In this document: in pieces, positions 18,486 through 61,955 of the stretch | How the letters are laid out: every line of letters begins with the position of its first letter | Position numbering within the stretch: position 1 is the first letter of the stretch | NCBI GenBank assembly: GCA_964516435.1 | Contig: CAZEZP010000078.1 | Span: 118,707 to 182,706, forward strand | Source: an uncultured Kofleriaceae bacterium | GTDB lineage: Bacteria; Myxococcota_A; Polyangia; HGW-17 | Direction of reading: 5' to 3' | Length of the DNA: 64,000 nucleotides | The notes under the pieces: model-generated | The model's input: only the letters and a program-made list of their open reading frames with translations | The model's database searches: none | What the model was told of the DNA's origin: nothing | Position numbers and translations under genes: made by a program

Positions 18486-18497
18486 GTTATCCGGTCG

Positions 18498-18515: not shown

Positions 18516-18546
18516 GACGGAAGAAGTTTTGAAAAAAGGATGAGCG

Positions 18547-19071: not shown

Positions 19072-19120
19072 TTATTTCTCGATCCTGAAATTGATTTCGA
19101 TTCCCTGATCAGTTCGATTT

Positions 19121-20155: not shown

Positions 20156-20184
20156 GGAAAGGGAAGAAAAGAAAAAAAGAGAAA

Positions 20185-21297: not shown

Positions 21298-21614
21298 GGT
21301 CTACCTCGCCTGCGGCACATTATCCGTTCATTCGGGAGAAATCAACAGGATCCATGAAGATCCATACATGGAGAAGTCTTCTCTGTCGAAAAATGGTGAA
21401 AAGACCAGGATGAAAAGGGAATTTTCATCGACAGGCGGAATAGTCGAAAAAAACGATATCGACATTTTTGCATGGAAACCTGTTCATATCTGGCATGAGT
21501 TGTCATTTTCCTGTTCTTCGGGAGGAAAAATGGGAATAGGGCTACCATCCCCGTTTCTTTCGGAACGATCATGATTTATAACGGCAAGGGAGTCACAACC
21601 CGAAGAGGTCATCC

Positions 21615-41831: not shown

Positions 41832-42118
41832 AAATAGAGACACAAACAAAACAAAACAACATTACACAATTTTTTTCATTTTTTTTGCTCCTTGTTATTG
41901 TTTGAAAATTTCAAAAAAAACCGAACAAATCAACGATAGATAAAATCAAAACTTTGTAAATTAAAATTAATAAAAATGTATAGGTTTGTCAAGCCGGTTT
42001 TTTCATTAAAAATTTTTCAGCGTGAGAAACACGAATACCGGAACTTCTGTCAGATGCAGGAAAAACTTCCGTCTTTCAGCGAAGAAGACCATTTTGCGGT
42101 CTTCAGAAAGGATTGCTC

Positions 42119-43231
42119 ATGAAAACGATGAACGAACAGGAAATGCGCCGGCAATTTGAGGCCGAATACCAGAAAACCCGCCAGAAGAACTTCAAGCGTC
42201 CCAACATTCTGGTGATCGGCTATACGGGAGCCGGAAAAACATCCCTGATCCAGACGATCCTGGGCAATGACCTGGTGCCGGAAAGCAAGATCGGCAGCGG
42301 AAAGCCCGTCACCCAGGGATACGAATACTTCGAAAACGAACTGATTCGCCTCTGGGATTCCAAGGGCTTCGAACTCGGCCACACGGAAGCGGAGTTCATG
42401 GAGAACACGCGCCGCTTCCTGCGGGAGCGCCAGAACGATCCGGACGTGGACAATCACATCCACCTGATCTGGTATCTCATCCAGGGGCCTTCCGCCCGCG
42501 TCACGGATTGCGACCGCAGTCTGATCCAGAACATTCTCCCGAAAAACCGCACGCTCGTGGCGATCAGCAAGGTCGACATCACGCGTCCCCAGCAGGAAGC
42601 CGCCATCCGTGAAATCGTCGAATCCTGCGGAATTCCGGCCAGCCAGATCTTTGCGGTATCCGATGCGCAGGCGAGATCCATCGGCGTCAGGGAGTTGGTG
42701 GCGCGCTCGTATGAGATGCTTCCGGACGCCTACCGGGCCGCTTTCGTGGATGCGCAGATCGTGGACCGCGAGATGAAGATTGCCGAAATCCGAAGCCGCA
42801 AGGGCAAGGCTTCGGCCATAATCTCTACCGCCACGGCGGCCGCAGCGGCCATTGGCGCCACTCCCATCCCCGTTTCCGATGCACCGATCCTGATGGGCGT
42901 GCAGGTGAGTCTGATCGGTTCCCTGGCGGCCCTGTACGATTTGCCGAAAGAAGGACTGAAACAACTCGCCTATCCCCTGCTTCTTCGTATGGTCGGCATA
43001 TACACGGCTTCCAGTCTGCTGAAACTCTTTCCTTTTCTGGGTTCTGCGATCAACGCGGCCGTCGCGGGCACGCTCACCGGTGCCCTGGGCTGGTACGTCG
43101 CCAATAAGTTCGAGAAAGCCGCCATCGCCCGCATCGAATCGAACTCACAGTATTATATCGACAACATCGATTTCGATATCGATGAATTCATGAACTTCAA
43201 GAATCAATACGAAAAGGAGCAGGGCAGATGA
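42119..43231 (+). CDS. GTPase-domain protein with C-terminal membrane/DUF697-like region
   Basis: G1 GYTGAGKTS, G3 DSKG, G4 SKVD. The C-terminal hydrophobic Gly/Ala-rich segment resembles YcjF/DUF697. AAAGGA Shine-Dalgarno. Confidence 0.7.
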   Translation: MKTMNEQEMRRQFEAEYQKTRQKNFKRPNILVIGYTGAGKTSLIQTILGNDLVPESKIGSGKPVTQGYEYFENELIRLWDSKGFELGHTEAEFMENTRRFLRERQNDPDVDNHIHLIWYLIQGPSARVTDCDRSLIQNILPKNRTLVAISKVDITRPQQEAAIREIVESCGIPASQIFAVSDAQARSIGVRELVARSYEMLPDAYRAAFVDAQIVDREMKIAEIRSRKGKASAIISTATAAAAAIGATPIPVSDAPILMGVQVSLIGSLAALYDLPKEGLKQLAYPLLLRMVGIYTASSLLKLFPFLGSAINAAVAGTLTGALGWYVANKFEKAAIARIESNSQYYIDNIDFDIDEFMNFKNQYEKEQGR

Positions 43232-44250
43232 AACCCAACATTCTCGTATGTGGAAAGACGGGGTCCGGAAAAACCTCGCTCATACAGGCGATCACCGATG
43301 ACGGGACCGTTCCGGAAAGCGCCATCGGCCATGGTGCGCCCGCCACGCGGGGATTCCAGGTGTATTCGACCCCGGCTGCCAATTTCATCGATACGGAGGG
43401 CTTTGTGCCCGGGCAGTCCCTGGAAGAAATGGTCGAATTCATCCGTGCGGAAATGCGGCGCCGGCTGGCAAGCGACTCGCCCGAATTTCTGGTGCATTGC
43501 ATCTGGTTCTGTGTGGACGGCAGCGGCGCCCGCATCACGGATGCGGAAATGCAGGTGATTCGGCATTTTTCGTCGCGATGCCTCCTGGTCCTCACCAAGA
43601 TGGACCTGCTCGAGGGGAGTGACCGCGGCAGGAAACAACGGGAAGAACTGCATGCCGCGGCGCAATCCTGCCTGGATGCCTCCCGCATCGTGATCGTATC
43701 GGCGAAGGACAGGACGGGATTGAAAACGCTCGTTGAGCAATCGGAAAATCTGGCCCGGGAAACCATGCTGGGCGCGCAGGAGGAATTGCGCCGTTTCTGG
43801 CAGACCTGGGAAGGATATTTCCGGGAACGCCGCCAGCAGTGGCTGGCGCGTGCCGCACAACGGGCCGATGAAGCCATCAGATGGGCAGCCGGCCGGGCGG
43901 CGGCCATTGCCATCGTTCCCATTCCGCTGGCCGACGTGGGACCGCTGGTGCTCAATGAAATCTACATGATCCACCGGATTGGAAATGCATATGGCATCAG
44001 TGTCACGCAGTCCATGGTGGCCATGTTGCTGGGCGCCAGTGCGGCCAGCACTCTGGGAAAAATCCTGGCCAGTTTCCTGCCGGGCTTCAAGATCCCCATC
44101 GCCGCCGCCATCACCTACGGTCTGGGCAAGGGCGTCAAGGCGTATTTCGAATCCGGCATGGAACTCAGTCCGGAAGAACTGAAGATACTCGTCCAGGAAG
44201 AAACGGAAAAAGCCAGGAAAAATGATTTTCAACCCATTCGGGAAGAATGA
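43228..44250 (+). CDS. GTPase-domain protein, paralogue of the upstream gene
   Basis: G1 GKTGSGKTS, G3 DTEG, G4 TKMD, and a similar C-terminal DUF697-like region. ATGA overlap with the upstream paralogue. Confidence 0.7.
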   Translation: MKPNILVCGKTGSGKTSLIQAITDDGTVPESAIGHGAPATRGFQVYSTPAANFIDTEGFVPGQSLEEMVEFIRAEMRRRLASDSPEFLVHCIWFCVDGSGARITDAEMQVIRHFSSRCLLVLTKMDLLEGSDRGRKQREELHAAAQSCLDASRIVIVSAKDRTGLKTLVEQSENLARETMLGAQEELRRFWQTWEGYFRERRQQWLARAAQRADEAIRWAAGRAAAIAIVPIPLADVGPLVLNEIYMIHRIGNAYGISVTQSMVAMLLGASAASTLGKILASFLPGFKIPIAAAITYGLGKGVKAYFESGMELSPEELKILVQEETEKARKNDFQPIREE

Positions 44251-44346
44251 AATTTTGCTGTAGAGTTCCTGCTTTTTAATAATCTTCCAAAAAAATGGTT
44301 GTCTGATTTGAAAAGTTGTGAAAATACTCAGTCAAAGGGGTTTGTC

Positions 44347-46803
44347 ATGACACAATCAAAAAACATGGAAATCCTCCTTTTGTATAACAAAATTATCAAG
44401 CGGCTGGTTCGTTCTGGTCGCAACAAATATCCACACCCCTATTTAAAAAATTTGATTAAAGAAATAAAAATTTATGGATTGAATCTTGATCCACTTGTGG
44501 TGTGGATTCCTGATTCAGATTGTATTTTTAGATTGAAATTTCTCGTTATTTTTATTGGAAAATTATTTGATCTTTATAGAAAAAGCATAGAGTTGGATGC
44601 CTATGAAAAATTTGTAAGGTATATTGATTTTTTTGAAAATTTAAAAAAAGATTGTTTTTATCCATTAAAAAATATTCTGGATAAAGAAATAGAAGAGAGA
44701 AAAATAACCTTCAAAGAGTCTTTAGAAAAGAAAAAGAAACGTGAGAGAAAGAGTCAGATTCAAAACGGTCCAAAAGACAAAAATCCATTCAAAAGCAACC
44801 AAGCATTGCAGTCAGGTGAAAACCCAGAATCGAAACAACCGCGGAAATTGTTCTTGAAACCGCGGCCCATCAATGTGGGATTCCGGGAAAAACTCAATAA
44901 AATCATATCGATATACGTTGATGAATCCTGGCCGCATGAGGAAATTGCCGGAATTCTGGCTGGCATCGTATGGCTCGGAGAAAAACCGGATCCCCAGGTT
45001 CTGCCGATTCCTCCGCAGCATACTCGCGGAACTGACAATATGCGGCATTATCTCGAAAGACTCGATGCCTGCGACCGGGCCATTCCGTTTTTCGTGGAAT
45101 TCGAGCCGCCTCCGGAAATATCGCGCGGATTGGCCTATGAACAGATGGTGCATGAGACGCTTCTGGTGGTTTTGGGATGGCTGCTGCCGGAAAAACTGGA
45201 ACTGAAGGCTGGGGAAACCGTAGGGGTGAACGTCGTTTGCGAGGCGATTGCCGGATACGAGCATGGAACCGATCATACGCGGGAATTTCAGGGAATTCTG
45301 ACCCAGGCGGCCCGGCGCAACCCTTCCCTGTTCCAGAGGTGGCGGATCCAGAAATTCCAGTGGGTGCAAAAAATTGGAGGACTGCCAAATAAATTTTCGG
45401 ATTCCCAGATCGAGGAACAGGGATACCTGGCGTACGGGGATTTGCTGGCATACCTGGCGTTCCGCAACACCAATGACAATGCCGCCGCCGTGGCCAGACG
45501 AATTGGCTTCGACAGTTTTCCCAACCGGATGCGCATTTCCCCCGGGTTGCTCTCGACGCTGGAGTTTCTGCAGTCCCATCAGACTTTCCGTCCGGACGTG
45601 TTTCTGGATCAGATGGCGCCCAACCAGCATCTGCCCTTCCTGCAGGCGTTTTTCGACAATGTGCGGCAAGCGCTTGCACAGGACAAAAAAGCACGGCTTT
45701 CCCTGCTGGAGGAACTGGACCGGCGCTATCAGGAGAAAGTGCGCGATCTGCACGCGTTGTCCCGACAGTTTTCCCTCGTGCAGCGGGTGGTAGGCGAACT
45801 CTCCGAAGATGCGCCGCGACGTCTTCGCCTGCTGGACCTGGGAATCCGGCTGCAGCATGCCAACCATTTCGGAGATCCGGAAAAACTGGGAAACCTGGAG
45901 GCCAACTACGCGCAACTGCGTGAGATCGCCCTGGAAAACGGCGATGCCGACCTGGTGGCGCACGTGGATCTGAATCTGGCCGTCCGGGCCGCGGACCGTT
46001 TCGAGCCCGAGGAAGCCCTGTCGATCGTGGAGGAACTGCTCGAAGAGGAGCACCGCCTTTCCCTTCTTTTCAGGGGCCGGGCCCATTCGGCACGCGGCCA
46101 GTACCTTTCGATGATGGAAGACCATGAGGAAGCCCGCCGCGAGTTCGAACGGGCGATTTCGCTCTTCGAGCGGGCCGACCTGAGCCCCGGGGAGCGTCTC
46201 GGGGAACTCGATCAGACGGGCATTTACCGCGCGTTCGCGGCCATCGATGCCGAGGATCCGGATGCGGAAACGCTGGTCGCCGCCCTGATGCGACCTGGAG
46301 AACCGAACCTGTCGCTGGAGAACCAGTTTCGCCATCACCTGTATGTGCGCTGGCTGGATTCGCTCGACGAGTACGCGGAAAAACGCCGGGCATACATGGA
46401 AAACGTCACACGCGAAATCCTGCCGGATACGCACCCGTGGCAGTTGATCGCCATGTATCGCGGTCTTTTCGCCCTGGAGCAGGAAAAGGACGAAGATGCC
46501 ATTTTCTGGCTGCGCCAGGCCATCGACATCGCCAGCCAGGGAGCGGGAGGCAGCCATGGCGCCACCTTGCGCATGATGGCCGCCGTCATTGCCACGCTGG
46601 CCTGGGTGACCACGGAAGAAGAAGAATTCCACAGGCGTGCCCTGGTGCTTCTCGACGGTGAAGCGCCGAATCCCGTCCGGCTCGAGGACGTGCTTCCTGT
46701 TGTGCGTGAAAAAACCGGATTTCTGCGGGAGGTGCTCGAGCGATATCCGCCTGCCGATTCGCTGGACGATGTCCTTTCGGTATTGACATTCAACTACAGG
46801 TAG
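44347..46803 (+). CDS. large hypothetical protein with TPR-like helical C-terminal half
   Basis: AAAGGGG Shine-Dalgarno before MTQSKN; the ORF is open from 44299. The N-terminal 180 aa are K-rich and AT-rich, the rest GC-rich and helical-repeat-like. Confidence 0.5.
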   Translation: MTQSKNMEILLLYNKIIKRLVRSGRNKYPHPYLKNLIKEIKIYGLNLDPLVVWIPDSDCIFRLKFLVIFIGKLFDLYRKSIELDAYEKFVRYIDFFENLKKDCFYPLKNILDKEIEERKITFKESLEKKKKRERKSQIQNGPKDKNPFKSNQALQSGENPESKQPRKLFLKPRPINVGFREKLNKIISIYVDESWPHEEIAGILAGIVWLGEKPDPQVLPIPPQHTRGTDNMRHYLERLDACDRAIPFFVEFEPPPEISRGLAYEQMVHETLLVVLGWLLPEKLELKAGETVGVNVVCEAIAGYEHGTDHTREFQGILTQAARRNPSLFQRWRIQKFQWVQKIGGLPNKFSDSQIEEQGYLAYGDLLAYLAFRNTNDNAAAVARRIGFDSFPNRMRISPGLLSTLEFLQSHQTFRPDVFLDQMAPNQHLPFLQAFFDNVRQALAQDKKARLSLLEELDRRYQEKVRDLHALSRQFSLVQRVVGELSEDAPRRLRLLDLGIRLQHANHFGDPEKLGNLEANYAQLREIALENGDADLVAHVDLNLAVRAADRFEPEEALSIVEELLEEEHRLSLLFRGRAHSARGQYLSMMEDHEEARREFERAISLFERADLSPGERLGELDQTGIYRAFAAIDAEDPDAETLVAALMRPGEPNLSLENQFRHHLYVRWLDSLDEYAEKRRAYMENVTREILPDTHPWQLIAMYRGLFALEQEKDEDAIFWLRQAIDIASQGAGGSHGATLRMMAAVIATLAWVTTEEEEFHRRALVLLDGEAPNPVRLEDVLPVVREKTGFLREVLERYPPADSLDDVLSVLTFNYR

Positions 46804-47119: not shown

Positions 47120-48331
47120 ATGAGCGGACGCAAGGATTACCCGGTGTATTCGAGCCAGTTGGAACAAGTGGTGGGCCGATTGCGCGGTCAGATGCAAAAC
47201 CAGCGGCAGGAACTGAAACGGCAGATGGATGCGAAGATTTCCAGCATGCAGAGCCAGATGCAGGGATATGTGAAACAGCGGGTGAATTTTTTGCATCAAA
47301 ACATCCAGCAGGTGGAAGCGAATTTTCAACGTGATCTGCAAAACATGCAAGGCAGATTGCAATCGTCCATAGATGCTGTACGGCGTCACGTGGATGCTTC
47401 CATTGGAAAGTTGCGCCAAGAACTGCGTCTCGAGCGTGAAAACAGGCAGAAAACTGCAGAAGAATGGATGCGGGTACAGGAGTTTCTGCTCACGGAGCTC
47501 GATCGGCTCCAGGCAGGCCGTTTTCGTCCGGTGGAAGCGCAGAAGCATGTGCAGATGCGGGAGTTGATGCAACAGAACATGGCCAGCGGGAATTTCGAAG
47601 CCGTCATTGGTCAGGTGCAGGCCCTCTACGTCGATTCCTTCGCCCTGCGCGCGGAACTGGAAATCGTCAACCAGCAGGCGGCGCAGATGGAAATGGAAAT
47701 CCGGCAGGGCATGGAGTTTCTTGCGCAGGCGCTCCAGAATCCGGTTTTGCGGCAGGAATACGGCACATCCGAAGGCGGGAAGGAACCGGTGGAAATCGAC
47801 CTGCGCTTCTGGGCCGAGGAAGCCTGGAAGGATTTGGAGTCGAGACAGGTCCAGTTGCAGGATGCCGTGCGGGACATGTCCCGGTTCGATATCGATGCGC
47901 TCCGGCAACTTCGCGAGAGCGTCGAAGCCACCTTGCAACTGCATGCGGAAGCGATGGAAGAAGGCTTGCGTCGCCATTTTCTGCACATAGCTAGCATGGA
48001 TCGGCAGGAAAGCATCGTCGAGGCGCTGGCACGCCAGGGCTTCGAGGTCATCGACAACTTCTTCGAGCAGGATGACGAGCGAAAAGCCAATGTACTGCTG
48101 CTGGAAAACGCCTCGGGAGAAAAGATCCTGGTGCGGGTGGTGCCCACCAGGGATGGAGAGAACATCAAGATCAGTTTCAGTTCGCTCAATCCCGTGACTC
48201 ATGGTTCCCGCATGCGGGCACTCAACCAGGCCATCGGCGTTCAGCCGAGGGAAGAACCCGGCTACGAGACACGGCCGGCGCCGCCCGAGGATTTCGATTT
48301 GGAGCGCTATCGCGTGAAACAGAAGGCATGA
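47120..48331 (+). CDS. Gln-rich coiled-coil protein
   Basis: GGAGG Shine-Dalgarno. Long heptad-repeat N-terminal two-thirds (MQNQRQELKRQMDAK...). No catalytic motifs. Confidence 0.55.
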   Translation: MSGRKDYPVYSSQLEQVVGRLRGQMQNQRQELKRQMDAKISSMQSQMQGYVKQRVNFLHQNIQQVEANFQRDLQNMQGRLQSSIDAVRRHVDASIGKLRQELRLERENRQKTAEEWMRVQEFLLTELDRLQAGRFRPVEAQKHVQMRELMQQNMASGNFEAVIGQVQALYVDSFALRAELEIVNQQAAQMEMEIRQGMEFLAQALQNPVLRQEYGTSEGGKEPVEIDLRFWAEEAWKDLESRQVQLQDAVRDMSRFDIDALRQLRESVEATLQLHAEAMEEGLRRHFLHIASMDRQESIVEALARQGFEVIDNFFEQDDERKANVLLLENASGEKILVRVVPTRDGENIKISFSSLNPVTHGSRMRALNQAIGVQPREEPGYETRPAPPEDFDLERYRVKQKA

Positions 48332-48903
48332 TCATGACTTTTTTGCGTGTGGCCGATTTTTGCCACAAAACCACGGCGTTCGGTCCGCAGCCCGCCTGTG
48401 TGCTGTGGCTGCAGGGCTGCACCCGCACCTGCCCGGGCTGCATCGCTCCGATGTGGCAGGATCCGGCCGGCGGTCAGGAGCATTCCGTGGCAAAGGTGCA
48501 TTCCTGGATCGAGCAGTCTGATATGCCCGTGCTGGTGGTCTCGGGGGGAGAGCCCCTGGATCAATGGCAAGGATTGCATGAACTCATGCGCACAACGTCC
48601 CGGGACGCACGAAGCGCCATTTTATATACGGGATACACCTATACGGAATTATTGCAGCATTCAGGCTTTCAATCGCTCATTCCATTTTTTGATTTGCTCA
48701 TTTGCGGCCCATACATCGAGGAATTGAACGATTCGAAAGGCCTTCGGGGTTCTTCCAACCAGGAGTTGATATTCCGGACGGCGCGCTTCGAGGCATGGCG
48801 GGAATGGTTCGTTTCCGGTGCGCGCACGCTGGAAGTGGAAATCCGCTCCGATTTCGTGCGCATGACGGGGATTCCCCCGGCAGGCATGCACCTGAATTTC
48901 TGA
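48328..48903 (+). CDS. NrdG-family radical-SAM activating enzyme homologue (anaerobic RNR activase-like), orphan
   Basis: CxxxCxxC cluster motif LQGCTRTCPGC, SAM-binding SGGEPL, and NrdG-like C-terminal blocks YTGYTYTELL and LRGSSNQELIF. Compare E. coli NrdG WTGYKLDELN and WRGSSNQVV. Confidence 0.75.
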   Translation: MIMTFLRVADFCHKTTAFGPQPACVLWLQGCTRTCPGCIAPMWQDPAGGQEHSVAKVHSWIEQSDMPVLVVSGGEPLDQWQGLHELMRTTSRDARSAILYTGYTYTELLQHSGFQSLIPFFDLLICGPYIEELNDSKGLRGSSNQELIFRTARFEAWREWFVSGARTLEVEIRSDFVRMTGIPPAGMHLNF

Positions 48904-48919
48904 GAGGCGGTGAGATTCG

Positions 48920-51469
48920 ATGGCACAGTCCCAGGAACAGGCATTTGCGCTATTGAGTGATTATTCCCGGCGCATCTTTTTGTTCAACGGAAAAACCAAG
49001 GATTATTTCCTCATGCCCGATGGGCGTTACATGCGCTTTGAATTGGTACTTCATGAATATCTCAAAAAAGAATTGAATTATGATATTGTCGCTTTTGTTG
49101 ATCATAATGGGCTCTTTTTCTGGGATGAAGAATCTGCCAGAGAAGCCATGCAGGCCAAAAGCCGCCGGGAGAAACCGCGCCCGGCATCCATTCGCGGCCT
49201 CATGAAACGCCCGAAAGGAATCACGACGCGTCCGCCAGCGGAAGCGGAAGCGCCAGCCCCCGTGCAGTGGCGCTATGATTTTGCGGGCGATGCGCGCATG
49301 CTGCTGCCGCAGGTGATGGGCATCCTCCAGCGGGACATTTCGGCGGCCGTGGTGGTGCTGGAGCGCAGCCTGCTGTTCAACATCCACCCGCAGGATCCCG
49401 TTTTTTTCAATTTTCGCGGCTTCCTGTGCGATACGATGACGTTTTTCCCGCACGATAACCGCAATCTCATGATATTTGCAGAAAACACCGAAAACATTCA
49501 GGACCTGGCGCGCCAGTTTGGAGAAATGGGTCTGGGAGACCTGTTTTTTACCCGGGAAAACAGCCAGAGCGACGGCAAGGCTGGATTCGCCTACATCGGT
49601 CCGCCGGGAAGAGAGGAATGCCGGCGGCTTTTTTCCTGGTTCCGGGTGGTCAAACAGCGGCCTGTCCACCTGCCGGATGCCGATGCCATGGGGGTGCTGG
49701 CAGCGTCGTGGTCAAAAGAAAAAAATCAAGGTCTGCATGTTCTAGCGGCGAGACTGGAAAAGGTTCGGGAGTTTCGCCTGGATTCAGTTGAGGAAAAATT
49801 GGAGATGAAGGCCGAAAAGAGCGCGCAGGAATTGCTCGACGACCTGGTAGGCATGGAGGAAGTCAAGAAACAGGTTCTGTTGCAACTGGCCACCCTGAAC
49901 CGGGAGGAAGCGAAAAAGGAGGATGCCAAAAAAGAAGAGATGTTCTGGCCGAAAAGGCTGGGCGCACAGAAAACCACCGGAACCCACCCTTACCTGGATC
50001 ATTTCGCATTGCTTGGCAATCCGGGAACCGGCAAGACCACTGTGGCCCGCATCATCGGAAAACTTTTGCAGGAACGGGGGCTTCTGGAAACGGGGCATTT
50101 CATCGGCGTGACACGGGGAGACCTGGTGGGGGAATACGTGGGAAGCACGGCCGTGAAGACCCGCCAGGTGCTGGAGCGGGCCATGGGAGGCGTGCTCTTC
50201 ATCGATGAGGCGTACTCCCTGTACAAAGGTGAGAGCGATACATTCGGGCAGGAGTGCATCGATACGCTCATCGAGGCGATGGAGACGCAGCGCGGGCGTT
50301 TCGTGATGATCCTGGCCGGCTATCCCAACGAGATGCGCAGACTGATCGCCTCCAATCCCGGCTTCAGGAGGCGCGTAAAGGAAATCGTGATTCCGGATTA
50401 TACGGATGCGCAACTGGCTGAAATCATGCGCCGGATGCTGGCGAAGGATGCCTGCGAATCCGACGTTCGGGAAAACCTCGATTTTTATGTGAAGAATCTG
50501 CTGGCCAACCGGACGGTGAGGAACGACTGGGGCAATGCAGGCGAAATCCGCCGGATTTGCGAAGATGCCCGCAAACGATGCGATGCCCGCAGGGGGAAGG
50601 AACTGTGTGCCCAGGATTTCGAGCATCCGGAATATTTCCAGCCGACTTCGGTCAGGACGGAAACGACGCTCGATGACCTGATTGGCATGGCGTCTCTCAA
50701 GCAGCATCTGAAGAAACTGTTCGTGAGTTTCAAGAGCAAGCAGAATCGGGGGCAGAAGGTGGACGTGGGGCATTATTTCTTCATTGGCAATCCGGGAACG
50801 GGGAAAACCACGGTCGCCCAGATTCTGGCCCGGGAACTGTATGCGCGCGGACTTTTGCGGACACCACGCTGTCTGGAGCATACGGCAATGGACTTCATTG
50901 GCCGGTACGTGGGGGAAACCGAAAACAGGACCCGGGAGATTTTCGAAAAGGCTTTGGGCGGCGTGCTGTTCATCGACGAGGCCCACCAGTTGGTGGATGC
51001 CACCCCCAGAGGTGAAACGTATTCCTATGGACAAGCGGTTCTCAAGACACTGGTGCCCTTGATGGAAAATCACCGGCATGAAATTTCGGTCGTCTTTGCA
51101 GGCTATCCGCAGCAGATGAAGCGTTTGCTGGAATACGACCCCGGGATGAAGAGTCGCATTAAAAGTACAATTCGATTTGAAGATTATAGTAATGAAGAAC
51201 TTCTTCAAATATTTTTAATACAATTTAAAAAAGAATATCCAGACATGTCTTTCCCCCTGGAAATGCAGGCGCCGCTGGCGGATTTCTTTGGAAAAGTGCG
51301 TGCCCTGGAAAGGGAGAAGTTCGGCAATGCACGCATGGTGCGCAATTTCGTGGGAAAACTGGTGGACACTTTGGAGTCGCGCTGGAACGAAGAGTCCGAA
51401 AGTGAAAAAAACATCTCAATGGCAGATCTGGAAAACGCCATGCAGGAATACATGCACCAGAATATGTGA
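48920..51469 (+). CDS. tandem AAA+ ATPase of the CbbX/SpoVK family
   Basis: Two modules, each with GNPGTGKTTVA[RQ]I Walker A, ...GGVLFIDEA[YH] Walker B and sensor regions. The first module is near-identical to the CbbX consensus. 849 aa. Confidence 0.8.
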   Translation: MAQSQEQAFALLSDYSRRIFLFNGKTKDYFLMPDGRYMRFELVLHEYLKKELNYDIVAFVDHNGLFFWDEESAREAMQAKSRREKPRPASIRGLMKRPKGITTRPPAEAEAPAPVQWRYDFAGDARMLLPQVMGILQRDISAAVVVLERSLLFNIHPQDPVFFNFRGFLCDTMTFFPHDNRNLMIFAENTENIQDLARQFGEMGLGDLFFTRENSQSDGKAGFAYIGPPGREECRRLFSWFRVVKQRPVHLPDADAMGVLAASWSKEKNQGLHVLAARLEKVREFRLDSVEEKLEMKAEKSAQELLDDLVGMEEVKKQVLLQLATLNREEAKKEDAKKEEMFWPKRLGAQKTTGTHPYLDHFALLGNPGTGKTTVARIIGKLLQERGLLETGHFIGVTRGDLVGEYVGSTAVKTRQVLERAMGGVLFIDEAYSLYKGESDTFGQECIDTLIEAMETQRGRFVMILAGYPNEMRRLIASNPGFRRRVKEIVIPDYTDAQLAEIMRRMLAKDACESDVRENLDFYVKNLLANRTVRNDWGNAGEIRRICEDARKRCDARRGKELCAQDFEHPEYFQPTSVRTETTLDDLIGMASLKQHLKKLFVSFKSKQNRGQKVDVGHYFFIGNPGTGKTTVAQILARELYARGLLRTPRCLEHTAMDFIGRYVGETENRTREIFEKALGGVLFIDEAHQLVDATPRGETYSYGQAVLKTLVPLMENHRHEISVVFAGYPQQMKRLLEYDPGMKSRIKSTIRFEDYSNEELLQIFLIQFKKEYPDMSFPLEMQAPLADFFGKVRALEREKFGNARMVRNFVGKLVDTLESRWNEESESEKNISMADLENAMQEYMHQNM

Positions 51470-51478
51470 AGGTGAATC

Positions 51479-52072
51479 ATGTCGGATCCGAAACAGGCCT
51501 TTTTTCAGGAAATACGGAAAAGAATCCGCAACCATCCGGAAGGTGGCGTGCTGGAGGTCATGGATGCCATCCTGAAACTTTTCAACATGCTTCCGCCGAG
51601 TCATTCCTGGGGGCAATCCGATGCCTGGATGGAAAAGTTCCAGAAATTGATCGTAGCCATCGATTTTTGCGTGCATTCGGCGGGAATGGAAACGGAAAAG
51701 CAGAAAATCGCGCAGTTGCAGGAAAAGATTGAAAAAAACCAGAATGAGAAAAAAGCACTTGAAGATACGATTCAAAATTTGGAAAATACGCTGGGATTGG
51801 AAAACAAGACGCTGGCCGATTTGCGCGCACTCCTGGAGCAATTGCAGAGCATCGAATTCTTTTTGTCAGCAAACGAGTCCGTGCGCGTCTTGAGAGATCG
51901 GCTCAAGGACGACCAGCAGTTTTGCGTTTCGCTTCCGCAATGGCGCAAGGAGTATGAGAAAGACATGGAAAAAGCCCTGCAGCATCTCACGGAAGCCGAA
52001 AAGATCGTGCAAGTCATCAGCGAGGAATTCGAGCGGCATACCCGGGAAATCCAGGAACGCAACGGAAGGTAA
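51479..52072 (+). CDS. hypothetical coiled-coil protein
   Basis: AAGGTGA Shine-Dalgarno. 197 aa with a central KQKIAQLQEKIEKNQNEKKALEDTIQNLEN heptad region. Confidence 0.5.
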   Translation: MSDPKQAFFQEIRKRIRNHPEGGVLEVMDAILKLFNMLPPSHSWGQSDAWMEKFQKLIVAIDFCVHSAGMETEKQKIAQLQEKIEKNQNEKKALEDTIQNLENTLGLENKTLADLRALLEQLQSIEFFLSANESVRVLRDRLKDDQQFCVSLPQWRKEYEKDMEKALQHLTEAEKIVQVISEEFERHTREIQERNGR

Positions 52073-52081
52073 GGAGAAAGA

Positions 52082-53854
52082 ATGCTATTCGAGATGAAAG
52101 AACTCAGTGCTGAAGAATTTGAAGAGCGGGTCGCCTTCTGGAGTGAGCGGCTGAATAGCAATCGGGTGAAATGTACGCCCGGCCATATGCGCTATTACAT
52201 CGCCGCGCCCCGGCAATCGGAACTGGTGCTGGTCCAGAATGTGGCGGGTTTTTCCCAATGTTTTCTGGAAAAAGCAGATTTTTCACCCCTTTCCAGGATT
52301 CTTCCCACGGGAAAGGAACTCATTCGCCGGCTACTCGATGGGGATTCCGAAGAACGCCGGATTCTGGAAACGCTGGCGGATGCGCTGGATCAACTCGGTT
52401 CATACAACCGGCATGTTTTCTGGCTGGATCCCGATCTGATCCTGTGGGATGGCAGCCGCATCCTGTTTCATCCTTTCGCGTGGCCCCAGATGTTCGTTTC
52501 CGACGAAACCGTCGTCAATCCGGAAATCCGGAACCAGTATGGCTACAAGATGGCCGTAAAAAATCCACGGATTGCCGCAGGCCAGATCGACAGCGACCTG
52601 GAGCGGGTCGCCTTCCTGTATTTTTTGCTGGAGTTGCTTTTCCCCGAGGTTCCATTCCGGAAAATGGACCGGACCATGATCCCCAAATTCCTCAAGTATT
52701 TTTCGAGGGCAGGTGTGTTTATGAAAAAATTTTTGTCGCGCTGGTTTGGAAAATCGCAAAATGAAAAGATTGCGGAAAAACCGCGGGAGATGCTTCAGGG
52801 CATCATCGGCGCGGCCAAGAACAATCCGCTGGCGCCACTTCCCTATCAGGAAGCGCGATATGAATGCGAGTATGATGTGCGCCGCGGGAGACACAAGAAG
52901 GGAACGCACAGCGAAGACGAATATGAAGTGATTGAATCCGGAAAGCACGAGAAGAGCCGGTATTTCATCTTCGTGAGCGATGGCGTGAGCACGGCGGATT
53001 TCGGGGATGGGGACGGCATGGTCCGTTTCCTGCGCGATCAGGTGCAAAATCAGAAGGAACAGATTGCATCCTTCCTGGATTCATTGCCCACGGATGATGC
53101 AAGGAAGTTTGCGGAAGAAAGCCGCTCTTTTCTGCTTGATTTGTGCCGCAAATTGAATGAGGCCGCTATTGAAAAACTCAATGAGCAACTGAAAAAGGAA
53201 AGCAAATCGGCCGAAGACATCCAGCATCCCATGAGCGCCACGCTCGTGCTGGGCGTGGTGTGCGGCAACTGGGTGCATTTCGTTCACATGGGCGACAGCG
53301 AGGTGATTTTCGTGCGGGGTGCAGATGCGTACATTCTGAATACGCCGCACAACGGGCTGCGCGACCGGCTTCTCGAAGAAGCGGCCCATGCGCAGGAAAT
53401 CCGCTCCCGCGTCGATGGGGACGAAGAACTGACGCTCGTCATTCCGGAATTTTCCATCGAGCAGGGGCGATTCGTCTCCAGTCTGGATGCCAATGCCCTG
53501 GAAAGTGTTTCCCTGTATCTGCAGAAGGGGGATTTGCTGCTGTTCTGCACGGATGGCCTGCTCAGTTGTCTGGGACACAATCCCGCCCAGCGGGAGGATG
53601 CCCTTCCGGAGTTGCTTCGCATCCTGCGGGAAACCGATGCGCTTCCTTTCTATGACCGGATCCAGAAGTTGCTCGATGAAGCCAAGAAAACGGGGGAAGA
53701 CGACGTGGCCGTGGTGGGACTGAAGAACATGGGACTGCCCGTTGCAACTTTGGCATCGGGGCAGGAAAAGGAAAGGGAGAAGCCAGGTTCCAGGGAAAAG
53801 GAATCCAGTATTTCTATTACAATCAGGGATTCAAAAAAAGAACGTAAATTATAA
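52082..53854 (+). CDS. PP2C-family Ser/Thr phosphatase with about 270-aa N-terminal extension
   Basis: PPM motifs FVSDGVSTADFGDGDG, HMGDSEVIF, FCTDGLLS and DDVAVVGL in the C-terminal half. TAAGGAGA Shine-Dalgarno. Confidence 0.75.
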   Translation: MLFEMKELSAEEFEERVAFWSERLNSNRVKCTPGHMRYYIAAPRQSELVLVQNVAGFSQCFLEKADFSPLSRILPTGKELIRRLLDGDSEERRILETLADALDQLGSYNRHVFWLDPDLILWDGSRILFHPFAWPQMFVSDETVVNPEIRNQYGYKMAVKNPRIAAGQIDSDLERVAFLYFLLELLFPEVPFRKMDRTMIPKFLKYFSRAGVFMKKFLSRWFGKSQNEKIAEKPREMLQGIIGAAKNNPLAPLPYQEARYECEYDVRRGRHKKGTHSEDEYEVIESGKHEKSRYFIFVSDGVSTADFGDGDGMVRFLRDQVQNQKEQIASFLDSLPTDDARKFAEESRSFLLDLCRKLNEAAIEKLNEQLKKESKSAEDIQHPMSATLVLGVVCGNWVHFVHMGDSEVIFVRGADAYILNTPHNGLRDRLLEEAAHAQEIRSRVDGDEELTLVIPEFSIEQGRFVSSLDANALESVSLYLQKGDLLLFCTDGLLSCLGHNPAQREDALPELLRILRETDALPFYDRIQKLLDEAKKTGEDDVAVVGLKNMGLPVATLASGQEKEREKPGSREKESSISITIRDSKKERKL

Positions 53855-53877
53855 TAAATATAAAGGAGATTTGAAGC

Positions 53878-55182
53878 ATGTCGGAAGGAAAAGTCATTCT
53901 CACCATGTATTCCAACCCGGATTACCTTCCGGGCAACCAGGTAGACCAGGTCATCGAGGGGGTGCTGGTCGTGGAGCCGCCGACGTCCAGCCAGAACGTC
54001 CAGACGGGCACGGATCTCGTGCTGCTGCTCGACTCCAGCGGTTCCATGAATGAAGCCTACTATGACGTGGGCATGTCCAAGCGCCAGAAGGTGGTGGAAG
54101 CCGTCCGTTCGCTTCTGCCGCTCATGTCGGATCTGGATACGCTGACATTCATCAGTTTCAATACAGGCGCTACTTTGTTGCTGGATCATGAGCGCAGGTC
54201 GGCATCCACCCGCATCGAAACCTGCCTGCAGGAATACATGGGCCAGGATGGCGGCACCAATTTCGAAGCCGCCATGCAGGTAGCCAGCACGGTGTGCCAG
54301 AACCGGGTCAACCCCGTTACCCGGCTCATTTTTTTGACGGATGGGCACGCATATGGCGGCAACCCCCAGCGGGCCGTTGAAATTGCCGGGCGTATGGCCA
54401 GTCAGGGAATCATGATCGATTCCATGGGCATTGGCGCCGAATTCAATTTCGATTACATGCGTCAGTTTTCCGCCCTCTGTGCTGGCATCACGGAAAACCT
54501 CGCCCGGGAGGCCAATCCGCAGGTGATATTCCGCAACATCCTGCGTTCCGGCCAGCGCACGATAGCTGCCAACCTCCAGTTGCAGGTGTTTTTCGGGAAT
54601 CACGTGCGCGACGTGGAAATCTACCAGTGCGCGCCCGAAAAGCGCTCGCTGTCCGCCTCTTCCACCACGAGTGCCCATGGGACGTTCTACCAGATGCTCA
54701 TCGGGGATTTGTCCATGGGAAATCCCAAGCAGTTCGTCATGCGCTGCCATGCGGACCTGCCGGATGCCTCCTATGTCAAACTGGCGGATATCCTGGTTAC
54801 CTACCGGGATCCCGCGACCGGCAACCCGGGAAAGATGGAAATCGCCTGGACGATCAACCTGTCGAAAGACGACAAAAACGTGCGCTATGACAGTTTCGTG
54901 CGCGACTGCCTGCGGGAAGTGGAACTGCTCATTGGTCTGGAACAGGCCTTGCGCCTCTACCAGAATGGCAACATCGCCGAGTGCCTGAAGAAAATGGACG
55001 GTCTGATCAAGGATGCCCGGAGCCTGGGCGACGTGGAGCAGGAGCGCATGCTGAGAAAGGCTTTTGAAAAGGTTCAGCGCAACGAGAATCTTTCCCAGGA
55101 GGAACTCAACCGGATGCTACATCGCTCCTCGCGATCGAGCCGGGTGCGCACGACACAGCCGAAGAATACATCCACGTTGTAA
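53878..55182 (+). CDS. von Willebrand factor type A (vWA) domain protein
   Basis: MIDAS motif DLVLLLDSSGSM, plus GGTNF and IFLTDGHAYGG. AAAGGAG Shine-Dalgarno. Confidence 0.75.
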   Translation: MSEGKVILTMYSNPDYLPGNQVDQVIEGVLVVEPPTSSQNVQTGTDLVLLLDSSGSMNEAYYDVGMSKRQKVVEAVRSLLPLMSDLDTLTFISFNTGATLLLDHERRSASTRIETCLQEYMGQDGGTNFEAAMQVASTVCQNRVNPVTRLIFLTDGHAYGGNPQRAVEIAGRMASQGIMIDSMGIGAEFNFDYMRQFSALCAGITENLAREANPQVIFRNILRSGQRTIAANLQLQVFFGNHVRDVEIYQCAPEKRSLSASSTTSAHGTFYQMLIGDLSMGNPKQFVMRCHADLPDASYVKLADILVTYRDPATGNPGKMEIAWTINLSKDDKNVRYDSFVRDCLREVELLIGLEQALRLYQNGNIAECLKKMDGLIKDARSLGDVEQERMLRKAFEKVQRNENLSQEELNRMLHRSSRSSRVRTTQPKNTSTL

Positions 55183-55194
55183 TCGAGGTGTTGC

Positions 55195-56250
55195 ATGACG
55201 CAGAAAGCCTTTCTTTGTGCGGGCACTTCATCGAACAACTATTTATTCAACCCATTTTATCCAGAAACGGACGTAGAATGGACCATTCCGGAGAACTTTC
55301 CGGAAGAAAACGTTCAACTTCACAAGGATGAGAACGGACATCTGCACATCCAGTGCAAGGAAGCCGATGATGTCTATGTTTTCATCTGCAACCGGGGGGA
55401 CATGAAACAGGAAATCGAGAGCCGGTTTGTACGGTTGCCGGAAGTCCTGGAGATTCCCGTGAATGGTTCCTGGCAGTTCCCGCTTTTGGACGGTGCCGTT
55501 TCTCTGCAATGCGAGATGCTGCCGGAAATCGGTCGTCTGGAGCGTTCGCAGGCCGGAAATGAATGGAAACTGATGCCTTTGCAAGAAGGATATGCCACAT
55601 GCACCTGCGTATGGGGTGAAGAAAAAAAATATAAAGTGCAGTCCCAGTTCCGGCTGCGTATCATCCAGGTATCCACGTACTTCGCTCCGTCCGAATCGAG
55701 CCGTCCCGGAATTTTGGCTTCCCCGGACAATGCGAGGGATTCCCTTTCGGCGGCCGCAGATTCTCGGCAAACGGGGCAGGAAGCATCCGGAAAAACCGGG
55801 ATACAGGCGCAGGATTCCGATTCTCCGGCGGATTCCCTGGCATCCCCCAATTCTTTATCGGGAAGTTGGACGGGAAGCATCGATGCCGTTCCAGAGTTGC
55901 GCGGCCCCGTTTTTCTGGTCGTGCGGAAAAAAAATGGAACGGAAGAAATTTCGCGCCATTCCGTGGGATTGGGAAAGAGTCTCGTCGTGGGTAGGGCTTC
56001 CGGATCGGCGCCGCTGGCCGTGGATGTGGATCTCGCTCCCCATCTTTCCAGGGAGAACCGGGACCTGTGTTCCCGCAACCAGTTGCGCGTATTCATTTCC
56101 AACAACCGGGTATACGTGAAAAACATTGGAAGCGTGGATGTCGAACTGGATGACGGAAAACTGCTGCCGGCCGGACAGGGGATGTTTCTGGCCGTTGGCC
56201 GACAGTTGGAAATCGCAGGAGAGATTGCGCTGACGCTGCAGGAAGGATGA
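55195..56250 (+). CDS. FHA-domain protein
   Basis: C-terminal FHA fold (GKSLVVGRASGS...SRNQLRVFISNNRVYVKNIGSVDVELDDGKL). N-terminal 200 aa unknown, with a Ser-rich linker. Confidence 0.7.
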   Translation: MTQKAFLCAGTSSNNYLFNPFYPETDVEWTIPENFPEENVQLHKDENGHLHIQCKEADDVYVFICNRGDMKQEIESRFVRLPEVLEIPVNGSWQFPLLDGAVSLQCEMLPEIGRLERSQAGNEWKLMPLQEGYATCTCVWGEEKKYKVQSQFRLRIIQVSTYFAPSESSRPGILASPDNARDSLSAAADSRQTGQEASGKTGIQAQDSDSPADSLASPNSLSGSWTGSIDAVPELRGPVFLVVRKKNGTEEISRHSVGLGKSLVVGRASGSAPLAVDVDLAPHLSRENRDLCSRNQLRVFISNNRVYVKNIGSVDVELDDGKLLPAGQGMFLAVGRQLEIAGEIALTLQEG

Positions 56251-56251
56251 C

Positions 56252-58582: not shown

Positions 58583-60024
58583 ACTCGCCGGTTTATGAGG
58601 AAACCCGGAAAAAGGCGCTCGAGGCGCTCCGGAACAAGGACTACGAGTCGTCATTTCTGCTGCACCTCCAGCAACTCGAATGGTTGCGGCGGGAACCGGT
58701 GGACGTGGAGAATCTCCAGGAACGCCAGCGGGTGCTCAACAACCTGCTGGTGAGCCTGCATGGCCGCATCCAGCGCGGGCAGGCGGAAAATCCACGGGAA
58801 TCCTGCCGGTTGTTCCAGGATTTTCTGAAGGAATACCTGGACGTATCCGGAAACATTCCATTCGAACAGCGCCGCCGGGGAGCCGATAATGTCATTTCGG
58901 ACCTCTACCGCCATGCCCTGCGCGTGACGCTGCTGCAGGTAACGGAAGACGATGGCATTTCCCTGCAGGAACAGGAAAGGCAACTCAAGTGGCATGTGCG
59001 GGATATTTACGACCGGTTCTTCCAGGTATTTTGCCGTGATGGCGCTTTCCCATATGAAATTTTGCTCGATCCATCTATGGATATGTTGTATTTTGAACGT
59101 CGAAATATTTTGCGTAAAGGTCATTTGCAGCAAAATTATTATAATACAATCTGGATGGCAGAGGTGTTCCTGCAATTTTTCTCGGGAGAGCATATGGCAC
59201 GGGTGCGCTCCGAGATCCTGCTGCTGTGCAGTGATGTGAGCCAGTTTCTGCCGCCGCCCCCTGAACATTCCCGGATGCGGTTTGCCGCCGAAATGCAGGC
59301 GATTTCGTGGCTGGACAAAAGTCTGGCGGAATATCCGGAAAACCGGGTGGCACGCGAACGCCGCCAGCAACTGGTTTCGTTCCTCACGGCGGCCGAGCAG
59401 ATCAACCGTTTCCGCCATGATGTCGTTTCCAAGATCGAATCCATCCGGGGAATCCTGGGGAAACTGCAGGAAAGGAATCCCGATGGGGAAAGCCGGCAGC
59501 AACTGCAGGCCGCCATGGTCCACGTGCGCACCATTCTGGGTTCGTTCCGCCTGACCATGCGCGAGCGACCCTCTTTGCGGGGCGTAGCGTCCATGGAATC
59601 GTTCCTGGAACGCTTCGCGGATGCAGATGTCACGGCCAAACTGCAGGGAACTCCGCGGCCGGTGGTGACGGACGAGGAATATCTGGCTCTCGTGGTGCAG
59701 AACCTGGTGCAAAATGCCCGGGAGGCCTATGCCCGGAACCGGATTTCCGGCGGGCAGGTGCATGTCGTGTTCGATTACGACCGTCTGGCGCTGGAAGTTC
59801 GGGATTGGGCCGGCGGCATTCCGGAGGAATTGCGTGCCAATGACAAATTGTTTGAGCCCTATGCCTCTTCCAAGGGCATCCAGCAGAATGCTGGTCTTGG
59901 TCTGGCCAATGTGCGGGAAGCCTGCCGGCTGCTGGAAGCTTCGATACGGTACGAAATCCTGAAACAGGATGGCCATACAGGTACGGTTTTCATTATCACA
60001 CTGAAAGAACCAGAAAGGGATTGA
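58579..60024 (+). CDS. GHKL/histidine-kinase-like ATPase (cytoplasmic, degenerate H-box)
   Basis: C-terminal HATPase_c N-box LVQNLVQNAREA, G1 VRDWAGGIP and G2 GLGLA. FRHDVVSKIESIRG is a possible divergent phosphoacceptor box. ATGA overlap with the kinase gene. Confidence 0.7.
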   Translation: MNSPVYEETRKKALEALRNKDYESSFLLHLQQLEWLRREPVDVENLQERQRVLNNLLVSLHGRIQRGQAENPRESCRLFQDFLKEYLDVSGNIPFEQRRRGADNVISDLYRHALRVTLLQVTEDDGISLQEQERQLKWHVRDIYDRFFQVFCRDGAFPYEILLDPSMDMLYFERRNILRKGHLQQNYYNTIWMAEVFLQFFSGEHMARVRSEILLLCSDVSQFLPPPPEHSRMRFAAEMQAISWLDKSLAEYPENRVARERRQQLVSFLTAAEQINRFRHDVVSKIESIRGILGKLQERNPDGESRQQLQAAMVHVRTILGSFRLTMRERPSLRGVASMESFLERFADADVTAKLQGTPRPVVTDEEYLALVVQNLVQNAREAYARNRISGGQVHVVFDYDRLALEVRDWAGGIPEELRANDKLFEPYASSKGIQQNAGLGLANVREACRLLEASIRYEILKQDGHTGTVFIITLKEPERD

Positions 60025-60027
60025 AAC

Positions 60028-61718: not shown

Positions 61719-61955
61719 ATGAATCAATGGAATTATTATTATGTTTTTTCATCAAAAAGTCTTCAAAAATACATTTTACATGGAAATAAATTGCAGTTTC
61801 TGGTAGGCGCAAGCAATCTGATTGAAGGCATTCCAACAAAAGTGATTCCCGCGGTTCTGGATTCGATGGGATTGCAGGCAGACACTGACTACCAGATTCT
61901 TTCTGCCTCGGCAGGCAGTACCCGCATCCTGTTTGCTTCGAAAGCGTCCGCATGA
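61719..61955 (+). pseudogene. 78-codon ORF with strong Shine-Dalgarno, probably the 5' remnant of a gene truncated by an IS256 insertion
   Basis: AAAGGAG Shine-Dalgarno 7 nt upstream. The ORF stops exactly where the high-GC IS-like sequence begins. The N-terminus MNQWNYYYVFSSKSLQKYILHGN... was not recognised. Confidence 0.4.

Follow-up and report, generated by a model that had tools for sequence, protein, structure and literature searches.

What does an enzyme of the NrdG lineage do in a locus that lacks NrdD, the anaerobic ribonucleotide reductase that NrdG activates? The question is raised by a stretch of 64,000 nucleotides (nt) from an uncultured Kofleriaceae bacterium (GenBank assembly GCA_964516435.1, contig CAZEZP010000078.1, positions 118,707 to 182,706 of the forward strand), which is referred to here as the window. 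At positions 48328-48903, the window encodes a radical S-adenosylmethionine (SAM) protein of 191 amino acids (aa), which a first-pass annotation had described as an orphan NrdG-like activase that might generate a radical on a partner other than a ribonucleotide reductase. Glycyl-radical activases are, to our knowledge, not known to act other than with enzymes of anaerobic metabolism.

Here, we report that the window protein belongs to a separate, long-form branch of the NrdG/glycyl-radical-activase lineage that is not linked to nrdD in the loci examined, that genes for protein-remodelling ATPases and for a specific partner protein are its conserved neighbours, and that the copy in the window is part of an operon for phospho-signalling of the TerY-P type. 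We propose, with a probability of roughly 55%, that the long-form enzyme serves as a dedicated part of a conflict (defence-like) system, centred on chaperones and under phospho-control, that acts on a protein substrate, and is not an NrdD activase. The enzyme is an unfamiliar version of a familiar type, in a largely undescribed system, and is, chiefly, a concrete experimental lead.

The long-form branch of the NrdG lineage

The window protein is an NrdG-derived radical-SAM fold with intact cluster and SAM motifs. The open reading frame (ORF) and the motifs named in the first-pass annotation were found as described: the iron-sulfur cluster motif C31-x3-C35-x2-C38 (CxxxCxxC), the SAM-binding motif SGGEP at residues 72-76, and two NrdG-type blocks, YTGYTYTEL at residues 100-108 and RGSSNQ at residues 140-145, with D122 and the C-terminal G181 and P183 also intact. 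The Pfam match is Fer4_12 (E=2.8e-22), and the top NCBIfam model is NrdG, TIGR02491 (E=3e-19), for which the score of 69.4 bits fails the curated equivalog cut-off of 126.1 bits. The QueE model TIGR04349 scored 22 bits, below its cut-off of 300, and a weak match to the QueE family was also obtained via phrog_2076. A search of PDB sequences with the protein returned no match. The AlphaFold2 model of the protein (predicted local distance difference test score, pLDDT, 93.9) had its top Foldseek matches among structures of the pyruvate formate-lyase activating enzyme, PFL-AE (3cb8_A, 8fo0 and 3c8f; E=1e-6 to 2e-5), the best being PFL-AE with a bound peptide (3cb8; E=1e-6, TM 0.52, ~131 columns); Escherichia coli QueE (6nhl, E=4e-4) and then viperins followed.

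The start of the gene lies in an ATGA overlap with the stop codon of the preceding gene at 48328-48331. This overlap, pointed out in the first-pass annotation, is present in the sequence and in the 191-aa form held by NCBI, but an alternative ATG at 48334, with AGAAGG 7 nt upstream, has better Shine-Dalgarno spacing than the start at 48328 and was picked by one gene caller (the 189-aa form, P0001); its use may turn the overlap into a 2-nt gap.

Several searches of the window for a glycyl-radical partner were empty, in agreement with the first-pass annotation. A hidden Markov model (HMM) of NrdD, built from the genuine NrdDs of control loci and matching those in 11 loci at ~1100-1330 bits, found none at E<=10 among the 377 six-frame ORFs of the window. 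The glycyl-radical motif RVxG[YFW] was not found in any protein of the gene cluster, and Pfam scans of the large window ORFs detected no NRDD and no Gly_radical domain.

Homologues of the radical-SAM protein are numerous, with 33-46% identity and lengths of 180-240 aa, and mostly carry either no name or the name "4Fe-4S single cluster domain-containing protein". A few (P0030, P0063 and P0090; at 206-237 aa longer than the nrdD-linked NrdGs of 150-185 aa) bear the JGI label [quoted passage not shown], which, in view of the results below, was probably transferred by similarity and is wrong. When one genome per species was scanned, 80 loci were obtained from filamentous cyanobacteria, Streptomyces, Nocardia, Kribbella, Amycolatopsis, Chloroflexota, Myxococcales, Planctomycetes, Lentisphaeria/Victivallaceae, Clostridia and others; the branch was also recorded from Bacteroidota. 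Complete genomes with a long-form gene include those of Streptomyces sp. NBC_00996 (CP108723), Schlesneria sp. DSM 10557 (CP124747) and Methylotuvimicrobium sp. KM2 (CP150634). Aerobes are among these lineages.

Clustering of the neighbouring genes, with NrdD sought over locus spans of up to ~20 kb, split the radical-SAM set in two: 13 short-form and 73 long-form members, the window included. The short forms (~150-185 aa; from Clostridia, Exiguobacterium and Flavonifractor) end at profile positions 154-169 of 196, and NrdD is encoded in 11 of their 13 loci, directly upstream of the radical-SAM gene in ten (Pfam NRDD 3e-178, RVTGY). These proteins are true NrdGs and served as controls. All 73 long forms reach at least profile position 174, and the NrdD HMM had no match in any of their loci.

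NrdG is the sequence family closest to the long form, with which it shares CxxxCxxC, GGEP, TGY..E and RGSxNQ on a minimal radical-SAM core of ~150 aa; the blocks YTGYTYTE and LRGSSNQ of the window protein align with those of the 13 short-form NrdGs, 11 of which are nrdD-linked. For the long form, NrdG is always the best family match, followed by PFL-AE, YjjW and other activases and never by QueE. The scores on TIGR02491 nevertheless differ: five nrdD-linked controls reach 121-152 bits and five further proteins of the long form 91-120, while the window protein, at 69, has the lowest score of those tested.

Two features set the long form apart from NrdG. One is a C-terminal extension of a helix plus a hairpin, ~40-60 aa across the family, which is present in every long-form member and in no nrdD-linked protein and in which G181 is invariant and P183 nearly so. 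In the window protein, 46 residues lie beyond the RGSSNQ block, and the AlphaFold2 model places a helix at 152-163 and a beta-hairpin at 168-181, ending in a GIPP motif. The other feature concerns the residues that contact the substrate. PFL-AE holds its substrate glycine with Asp16, in the DGPGIR loop, and Asn38, in the C-H-N motif (PMC9326890). The corresponding columns are conserved in the true NrdGs (D in 12, H in 13 and N in 13 of the 13 sequences), whereas those of the long form hold L/N/F, I/V/F/M/C and A/S/N/T/V, respectively, and none of the 73 sequences has D or H there. In the window protein, F18, I39 and A40 stand where NrdG has the Asp of V-D-GPGxR and the His and Asn of C-H-N. 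The window protein and those of loci L001 and L008, and only these, have in addition a degenerate loop, FGPQPA, in place of the GPGxR that the remaining 70 long-form proteins and all 13 NrdGs retain. Three traits make up the signature of the long form: the C-terminal extension, a C-[IVF]-[ASN]-P motif where NrdG has C-H-N, and L/N-GPGxR where NrdG has D-GPGxR. It separates the long form from true NrdG, with which some sources confuse it by label.

In a neighbour-joining tree without support values, the short forms make up one clade, in line with a separation from bona fide NrdG that the first-pass annotation had suggested checking by phylogeny; the long-form subclades track the type of the neighbouring ATPase, and the window protein groups with L001 and L008. 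As regards the wider activases of glycyl-radical enzymes, PFL-AE (PDB 3CB8) is the best structural match and has an open partial-barrel architecture suited to macromolecular substrates. The window differs from these systems in that none of its cluster proteins is a partner that ends in a glycyl-radical domain with RVxG[YFW], and the long form differs in that the Asp16/Asn38 glycine contacts are not conserved (PMC9326890). It has also been found in lineages whose members are aerobes.

The window operon, recurrent neighbours and the coiled-coil partner

The radical-SAM gene is the second in a run of genes at 47120-61702 that lie on the same strand with gaps of -4 to +23 nt, the PIN gene excepted. 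We treat the run as an operon of ~14.6 kb on the basis of gene spacing, because promoter and terminator scans of the window were at chance level. It is counted as 12 genes, eleven of which are named here, in order:

47120-48331, + strand: coiled-coil partner protein, 403 aa, rich in Q, E and R (family alignment, structural model)
48328-48903, + strand: long-form NrdG-like radical-SAM enzyme, 191 aa (motifs, Pfam/NCBIfam, AlphaFold2 model, Foldseek)
48920-51469, + strand: tandem AAA+ ATPase of the SpoVK/CbbX/EccA type, 849 aa (Pfam, NCBIfam, motifs)
51479-52072, + strand: coiled-coil protein, 197 aa (weak matches of coiled-coil type only)
52082-53854, + strand: PP2C-type Ser/Thr phosphatase, 590 aa (Pfam PP2C_2 5e-10, SpoIIE 6e-9)
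53878-55182, + strand: vWA (TerY-like) protein, 434 aa (Pfam VWA_2 1e-12, vWA-TerF-like 8e-7)
55195-56250, + strand: unassigned protein, 351 aa (no Pfam or PHROG match)
56252-58582, + strand: Ser/Thr protein kinase, 776 aa (Pfam Pkinase 6e-14)
58579-60024, + strand: HATPase_c protein (histidine-kinase-like ATPase), 481 aa (Pfam; counterpart in L001 and L005)
60028-61020, + strand: receiver-domain (REC) protein, 330 aa (Pfam Response_reg 6.5e-9)
60965-61702, + strand: PIN-domain protein, 245 aa (Pfam PIN_12, PIN_4 and PIN ~1e-4, all below cut-offs)

The gene order reported earlier, with the radical-SAM gene between a Q-rich coiled-coil protein and a tandem CbbX-type AAA+ ATPase and with a PP2C fusion nearby, holds. 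The ATPase matches SpoVK, CbbX and EccA at 378, 329 and 319 bits, all below the cut-offs; the Walker A (GNPGTGKT) and Walker B (VLFIDEA) motifs are intact in each of its two modules, its lid matches AAA_lid_6, and its N-terminal ~330 aa form a domain without assigned function. A protein of similar size occupies the position of the 197-aa coiled-coil gene in L001 and L005. The PP2C protein has a ~260-aa N-terminal domain without assigned function; its gene and that of the vWA protein, with an intact metal ion-dependent adhesion site (MIDAS) motif DSSGS, are conserved in L001, L005 and L044, and the 351-aa protein has counterparts in L001 and L044 (phmmer 1e-6 and 8e-12). The kinase has the catalytic loop D-M-K-P-G-N as well as the DLG and APE motifs. 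With its start as called at 60965, the PIN ORF shares 56 nt with the receiver gene, but translation probably begins further downstream; from its weak domain match, the product is a possible RNase effector candidate.

The closest homologue with known context, P0002 (46% identity), has the same synteny as the window, and in sampled loci the start and stop codons of the radical-SAM gene and its neighbours overlap or nearly touch. Among the 73 long-form loci, SpoVK-type tandem or triple AAA+ ATPases, the family of the window ATPase, adjoin the radical-SAM gene in 20; ClpB-like AAA_2 proteins were found in 10, Cdc48/FtsH-like AAA proteins in 9, Hsp70-like proteins in 20, FGE-sulfatase-domain proteins in 14, DUF1257 proteins in 10 and a cyanobacterial coiled-coil protein (cc6) in 10. 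An AAA+ ATPase lies within 7 kb in 38 of the 73, and a gene for the coiled-coil partner, a DUF1257 protein or cc6 is present in 43. At least one component of the system was found in 58 of the 73, and in 39 of the 43 loci in which both flanks extend over at least 5 kb. The label "orphan" in the first-pass annotation is therefore misleading, since the gene has conserved partners, the AAA+ ATPases and the coiled-coil protein.

More distant members (from Schlesneria, a Bacteroidaceae metagenome-assembled genome and a JGI metagenome contig) adjoin an unassigned protein of 300-500 aa and an AAA+ ATPase, and variant loci further encode TIR, PIN, vWA-FHA and bpMoxR, along with a trypsin-like peptidase joined to AAA+. 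In the Bacteroidaceae variant (L006:12236-15583 and L012), this peptidase forms the C-terminal part of the tandem AAA+ ATPase beside the radical-SAM gene, and the gene for a PIN-domain protein lies downstream. In Schlesneria sp. DSM 10557 (L003:9418-9804 / L004:3058-3441), a TIR_2 gene lies directly upstream of the long-form radical-SAM gene, which is followed by a triple-AAA+ ATPase and then by a bpMoxR gene. A DUF1257-linked subclade (L038, L042, L046, L050, L066, L067, L075, L076 and L079), in which the DUF1257 protein has the N-terminus MSHF[ST]xxKT, encodes a single-module Cdc48/FtsH-like AAA+ ATPase in 7 and an Hsp70-like protein in 8 of the 9 loci; its radical-SAM proteins keep N-GPGxR and C-F-N-P. 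The radical-SAM/AAA+/TerY-P system of Methylotuvimicrobium sp. KM2 (L005; CP150634) adjoins a type III CRISPR-Cas locus (L005:1-5400) that encodes Cmr2, a RAMP protein, two Cas2, Cas1 and a reverse transcriptase.

The phosphatase, vWA and kinase genes resemble a described arrangement. In the part of PMC4978471 that cites Anantharaman et al. 2012, the TerY-P triad is given as a vWA/TerY protein, a PP2C phosphatase and a Ser/Thr kinase, and is linked to anti-phage or suicidal responses. All three are encoded in the window (vWA, 53878-55182; PP2C, 52082-53854; kinase, 56252-58582) with catalytic and MIDAS motifs intact; vWA and PP2C genes lie side by side in the window, L001, L005 and L044, and the kinase is present in the window, L001 and L005 and was not detected in L044, the downstream flank of which is short. 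Triads described in that part of PMC4978471 are, however, linked to DNA-processing modules, components resembling type VII secretion systems or McrBC, whereas the linked module in the window consists of the radical-SAM enzyme, the coiled-coil partner and the tandem AAA+ ATPase.

Our literature search found no paper on an NrdG-like radical-SAM enzyme with AAA+/TerY-P modules, the only possible mention being one sentence by Kaur, Burroughs, Iyer and Aravind (2020, eLife; PMC7159879) on a "distinctive radical SAM" effector in MoxR-vWA "FtsH ternary systems". That effector, for which no family assignment was given, was predicted to modify the product of a neighbouring gene in bacteria of multicellular type (PMC7159879). 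Both cases place a radical-SAM gene in a conflict system with vWA and AAA+ proteins, and the Schlesneria variant (L003/L004), with its bpMoxR gene, may correspond to it, as compared by description (PMC7159879). The window differs in that no MoxR match was obtained among its Pfam-scanned ORFs and that its AAA+ ATPase is of the SpoVK/CbbX type with both modules intact, whereas theirs is of the FtsH type with an inactive first module.

The partner protein consists of an MSGRK N-terminus, a long coiled coil or three-helix scaffold with an internal beta-hairpin at residues 209-227, and a C-terminal domain of a beta-meander and a helix at residues 309-371. The genes that abut the radical-SAM gene in loci of the SpoVK and Clp types form one family, as judged by BLASTP and by an alignment of the shared C-terminal domain, with a common architecture: an M-S-G-x(1,2)-K N-terminus with a short strand-like stretch, a long coiled coil and an alpha/beta C-terminal domain. 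In ~26 long-form loci, and in no nrdD locus, the radical-SAM gene is directly adjoined by a same-strand ORF that starts with MSG and is at least 100 aa long; at other places in the loci such ORFs are rare. An exhaustive single-sequence phmmer search with the C-terminal domain of the window partner found only 22 relatives in 1.84 billion representatives. Of 14 full-length relatives, 12 start with MSG (one as VSG, from a GTG start) and 2 with MSA. With the full-length partner as the query, there were 2 matches, in a search crowded by coiled-coil candidates.

Three ideas about this protein were pursued and set aside. Gly3 as a glycyl-radical site was weakened and is not adopted, since 2 of 14 representatives have Ala at this position (motif M-S-[G/A]-x-[K/H]). 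A glycine at the tip of the hairpin, considered as a "glycine finger", was rejected as it is not invariant, being missing from P0124, P0138 and L005. Homology of the C-terminal domain to DUF1257, which inspection by eye had suggested, was likewise rejected, with hhalign probabilities of 1-9% for both raw and coiled-coil-deleted constructs. The C-terminal domain also matches two very large proteins, P0134 (4340 aa) and P0142 (1477 aa, with 6 matched stretches).

Possible functions of the long form

The conflict-system reading is suggested by the patchy phyletic spread of the family, the effector-type domains in variant loci, the proximity of CRISPR-Cas and insertion sequence (IS) elements, and what has been described for the TerY-P triad. 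That the enzyme would act on a protein or peptide is argued from its activase lineage and fold together with the company of chaperones and AAA+ ATPases. Because the contact residues are changed, the substrate would not be a canonical glycine loop. The partner protein is the prime candidate for the substrate (or for a scaffold), given the translational coupling of the two genes, their strict adjacency and the conserved, disordered N-terminal tail of the partner. As to the proposal in the first-pass annotation that the activase had been repurposed for a partner other than a ribonucleotide reductase, the existence of a distinct clade away from nrdD agrees with it; a glycyl radical, however, finds no support, as the neighbours contain no conserved Gly motif and the residues with which PFL-AE contacts the substrate glycine are replaced.

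A possible course of events can be outlined on this basis. The vWA, PP2C and kinase proteins, as a phospho-switch of the TerY-P type, would sense or threshold a signal such as infection or stress, and the AAA+ ATPase would remodel or present a protein substrate. The radical-SAM enzyme, as its motifs and predicted fold suggest, would reductively cleave SAM at its [4Fe-4S] cluster, and the resulting 5'-deoxyadenosyl radical would take a hydrogen from a protein or peptide, with the partner, perhaps at its disordered N-terminal tail, as the prime candidate. Hydrogen abstraction would then activate, cross-link, modify or cleave this substrate. A bolder version, which we regard as a long shot, has the long-form enzyme as an immune effector or trigger that would place a carbon-centred radical on the partner or on an invader protein delivered by the AAA+ ATPase or Hsp70, with the radical cleaving or cross-linking its target in oxygen-exposed cells; if true, protein-directed radical chemistry would be a new defence principle outside anaerobic metabolism.

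Should the conflict-system reading hold, a sister branch of NrdG with its own signature would have been recruited into chaperone-centred, phospho-regulated systems. Radical-SAM enzymology would gain a new compact enzyme with a probably macromolecular substrate, phage defence a candidate system outside the coverage of PADLOC, and the unexplained radical-SAM gene of Kaur et al. (2020) a testable candidate.

Several points weigh against this reading. The substrate and chemistry of the enzyme are ones that we infer, and no glycine of the partner is invariant. The loss of GPGxR in the window subclade may mean that substrate binding differs from that proposed or that the enzyme is impaired. The absence of NrdD near the window gene is established for the 64-kb window only. 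About 15 of the 73 long-form loci are without the recurring neighbours, some of them with full flanks (L002, L043, L051 and L085). The tree is midpoint-rooted, with neither support values nor an outgroup, and the promoter and terminator scans were uninformative as to the extent of the operon. Finally, a role in defence is read from context, because PADLOC-DB v2 has no model that matches the radical-SAM, partner, PP2C or vWA proteins, nor does it have one for the TPR protein encoded upstream (see below); its weak, generic matches were confined to the AAA+ ATPase, the 197-aa coiled-coil protein and the second of two upstream GTPases.

Among the alternatives, a reaction like that of QueE or viperin on a small molecule or nucleotide, yielding a toxic or signalling metabolite while the AAA+ ATPase and partner regulate or scaffold the enzyme, is unlikely in our view but has to be taken seriously. 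QueE is the second-best structural match after PFL-AE, with viperins next; the weak QueE family matches (TIGR04349 at 22 bits, and phrog_2076) and the replacement of the glycine-contact residues of activases point the same way, and pViperins and Ophion are established cases of defence by radical-SAM chemistry on nucleotides (bioRxiv 10.1101/2025.09.30.679545). Like the long form, these are radical-SAM enzymes, and the viperin fold is a distant structural match; they belong, however, to another radical-SAM clade with nucleotide substrates, and their partners are none (viperins) or a PHP protein and a phosphoribosyltransferase (Ophion). Against such chemistry, the best sequence matches of the long form are always NrdG and protein-directed activases and never QueE, the NrdG-specific blocks are retained, no genes of nucleotide metabolism (kinases, phosphoribosyltransferases) recur in the neighbourhoods, and the neighbours that do recur are protein remodellers, namely, AAA+ ATPases and Hsp70-like proteins. 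Somewhat harder to sustain is a housekeeping, developmental or proteostasis cluster in which the radical-SAM enzyme would mature a cytoskeleton-like coiled coil under Ser/Thr phospho-control in bacteria with complex lifestyles. The partner model does resemble an EzrA/spectrin-like scaffold, filamentous or multicellular lineages are over-represented in the family, the genes upstream code for GTPase+DUF697 and TPR proteins, and the enzyme and its partner have no PADLOC match; but the patchy distribution over phyla, the 33-46% identity between members, the variable gene content, the TIR, PIN and trypsin effector domains of variant loci, the proximity of some systems to CRISPR-Cas and IS elements, and the rarity of the partner in the window subfamily (22 relatives in the phmmer search) all argue otherwise.

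Two further explanations concern the enzyme itself, and we consider both highly improbable. A bona fide NrdG split from an nrdD elsewhere in the genome would agree with NrdG being the best family match, with the presence of the signature blocks and with the restriction of the analysis to the window. A simple operon split is nevertheless very unlikely because the long-form clade does not lie beside nrdD in any locus examined (0 of 73 long-form loci versus 11 of 13 short-form loci); moreover, the score is far under the equivalog cut-off, the C-terminal extension is absent from all nrdD-linked proteins, the D and H-N contacts are lost, and the synteny with the partner and AAA+ genes is conserved across phyla. 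The family is also present in Streptomyces and other actinomycetes, which use class I/II ribonucleotide reductases. The idea of a catalytically degenerate fold, kept in the window subclade as a structural or adaptor subunit, draws on the loss of the GPGxR loop in the window protein, L001 and L008 and on the lowest score on the NrdG model among those tested. It is at odds with the intact Cys triad, SGGEP, TGY, D122, RGSSNQ and G181/P183, and with a fold predicted at high confidence (pLDDT 93.9).

Flanking sequences of the window

Upstream of the partner gene lies a block of three genes, the membership of which in the system is uncertain:

42113-43231 and 43228-44250, + strand: two paralogous GTPase+DUF697 genes (Pfam)
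44299-46803, + strand: TPR protein, 834 aa (Pfam)

The block (42113-46803) is on the same strand as the operon and ends 317 nt before the partner gene; it is not conserved in L001 and L005.

Beyond the PIN gene, the segment 61719-63954 contains frameshifted transposase fragments of the IS256/mutator type at 62160-63101 (- strand), flanked by an ORF with a Cas10-like N-terminus (61719-61955, + strand) and an ORF with a RAMP-like glycine-rich loop (63580-63954, - strand; WGVGAKTVAGYGRL). Going by the ORF translations, which are the sole basis of this assignment, the segment may be a disrupted type III CRISPR-Cas locus.

Repeats were observed at two further places. Tandem repeats of 21 nt at 21933-22218 (7.6 copies, 92% matches) lie inside a gene for a 1145-aa TPR protein (21615-25052) and encode heptapeptide repeats, and two adjoining arrays of a 33-nt repeat (2.5 and 2.8 copies) occupy 2843-3037, between a gene for a major facilitator superfamily transporter and the next ORF. 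Finally, recF (19121-20155, - strand) and dnaN (20185-21297, - strand), as read from their N-terminal translations, lie in a trough of 45-48% GC at 18000-22000, in a window of ~60% GC overall; this region may be the neighbourhood of a replication origin.

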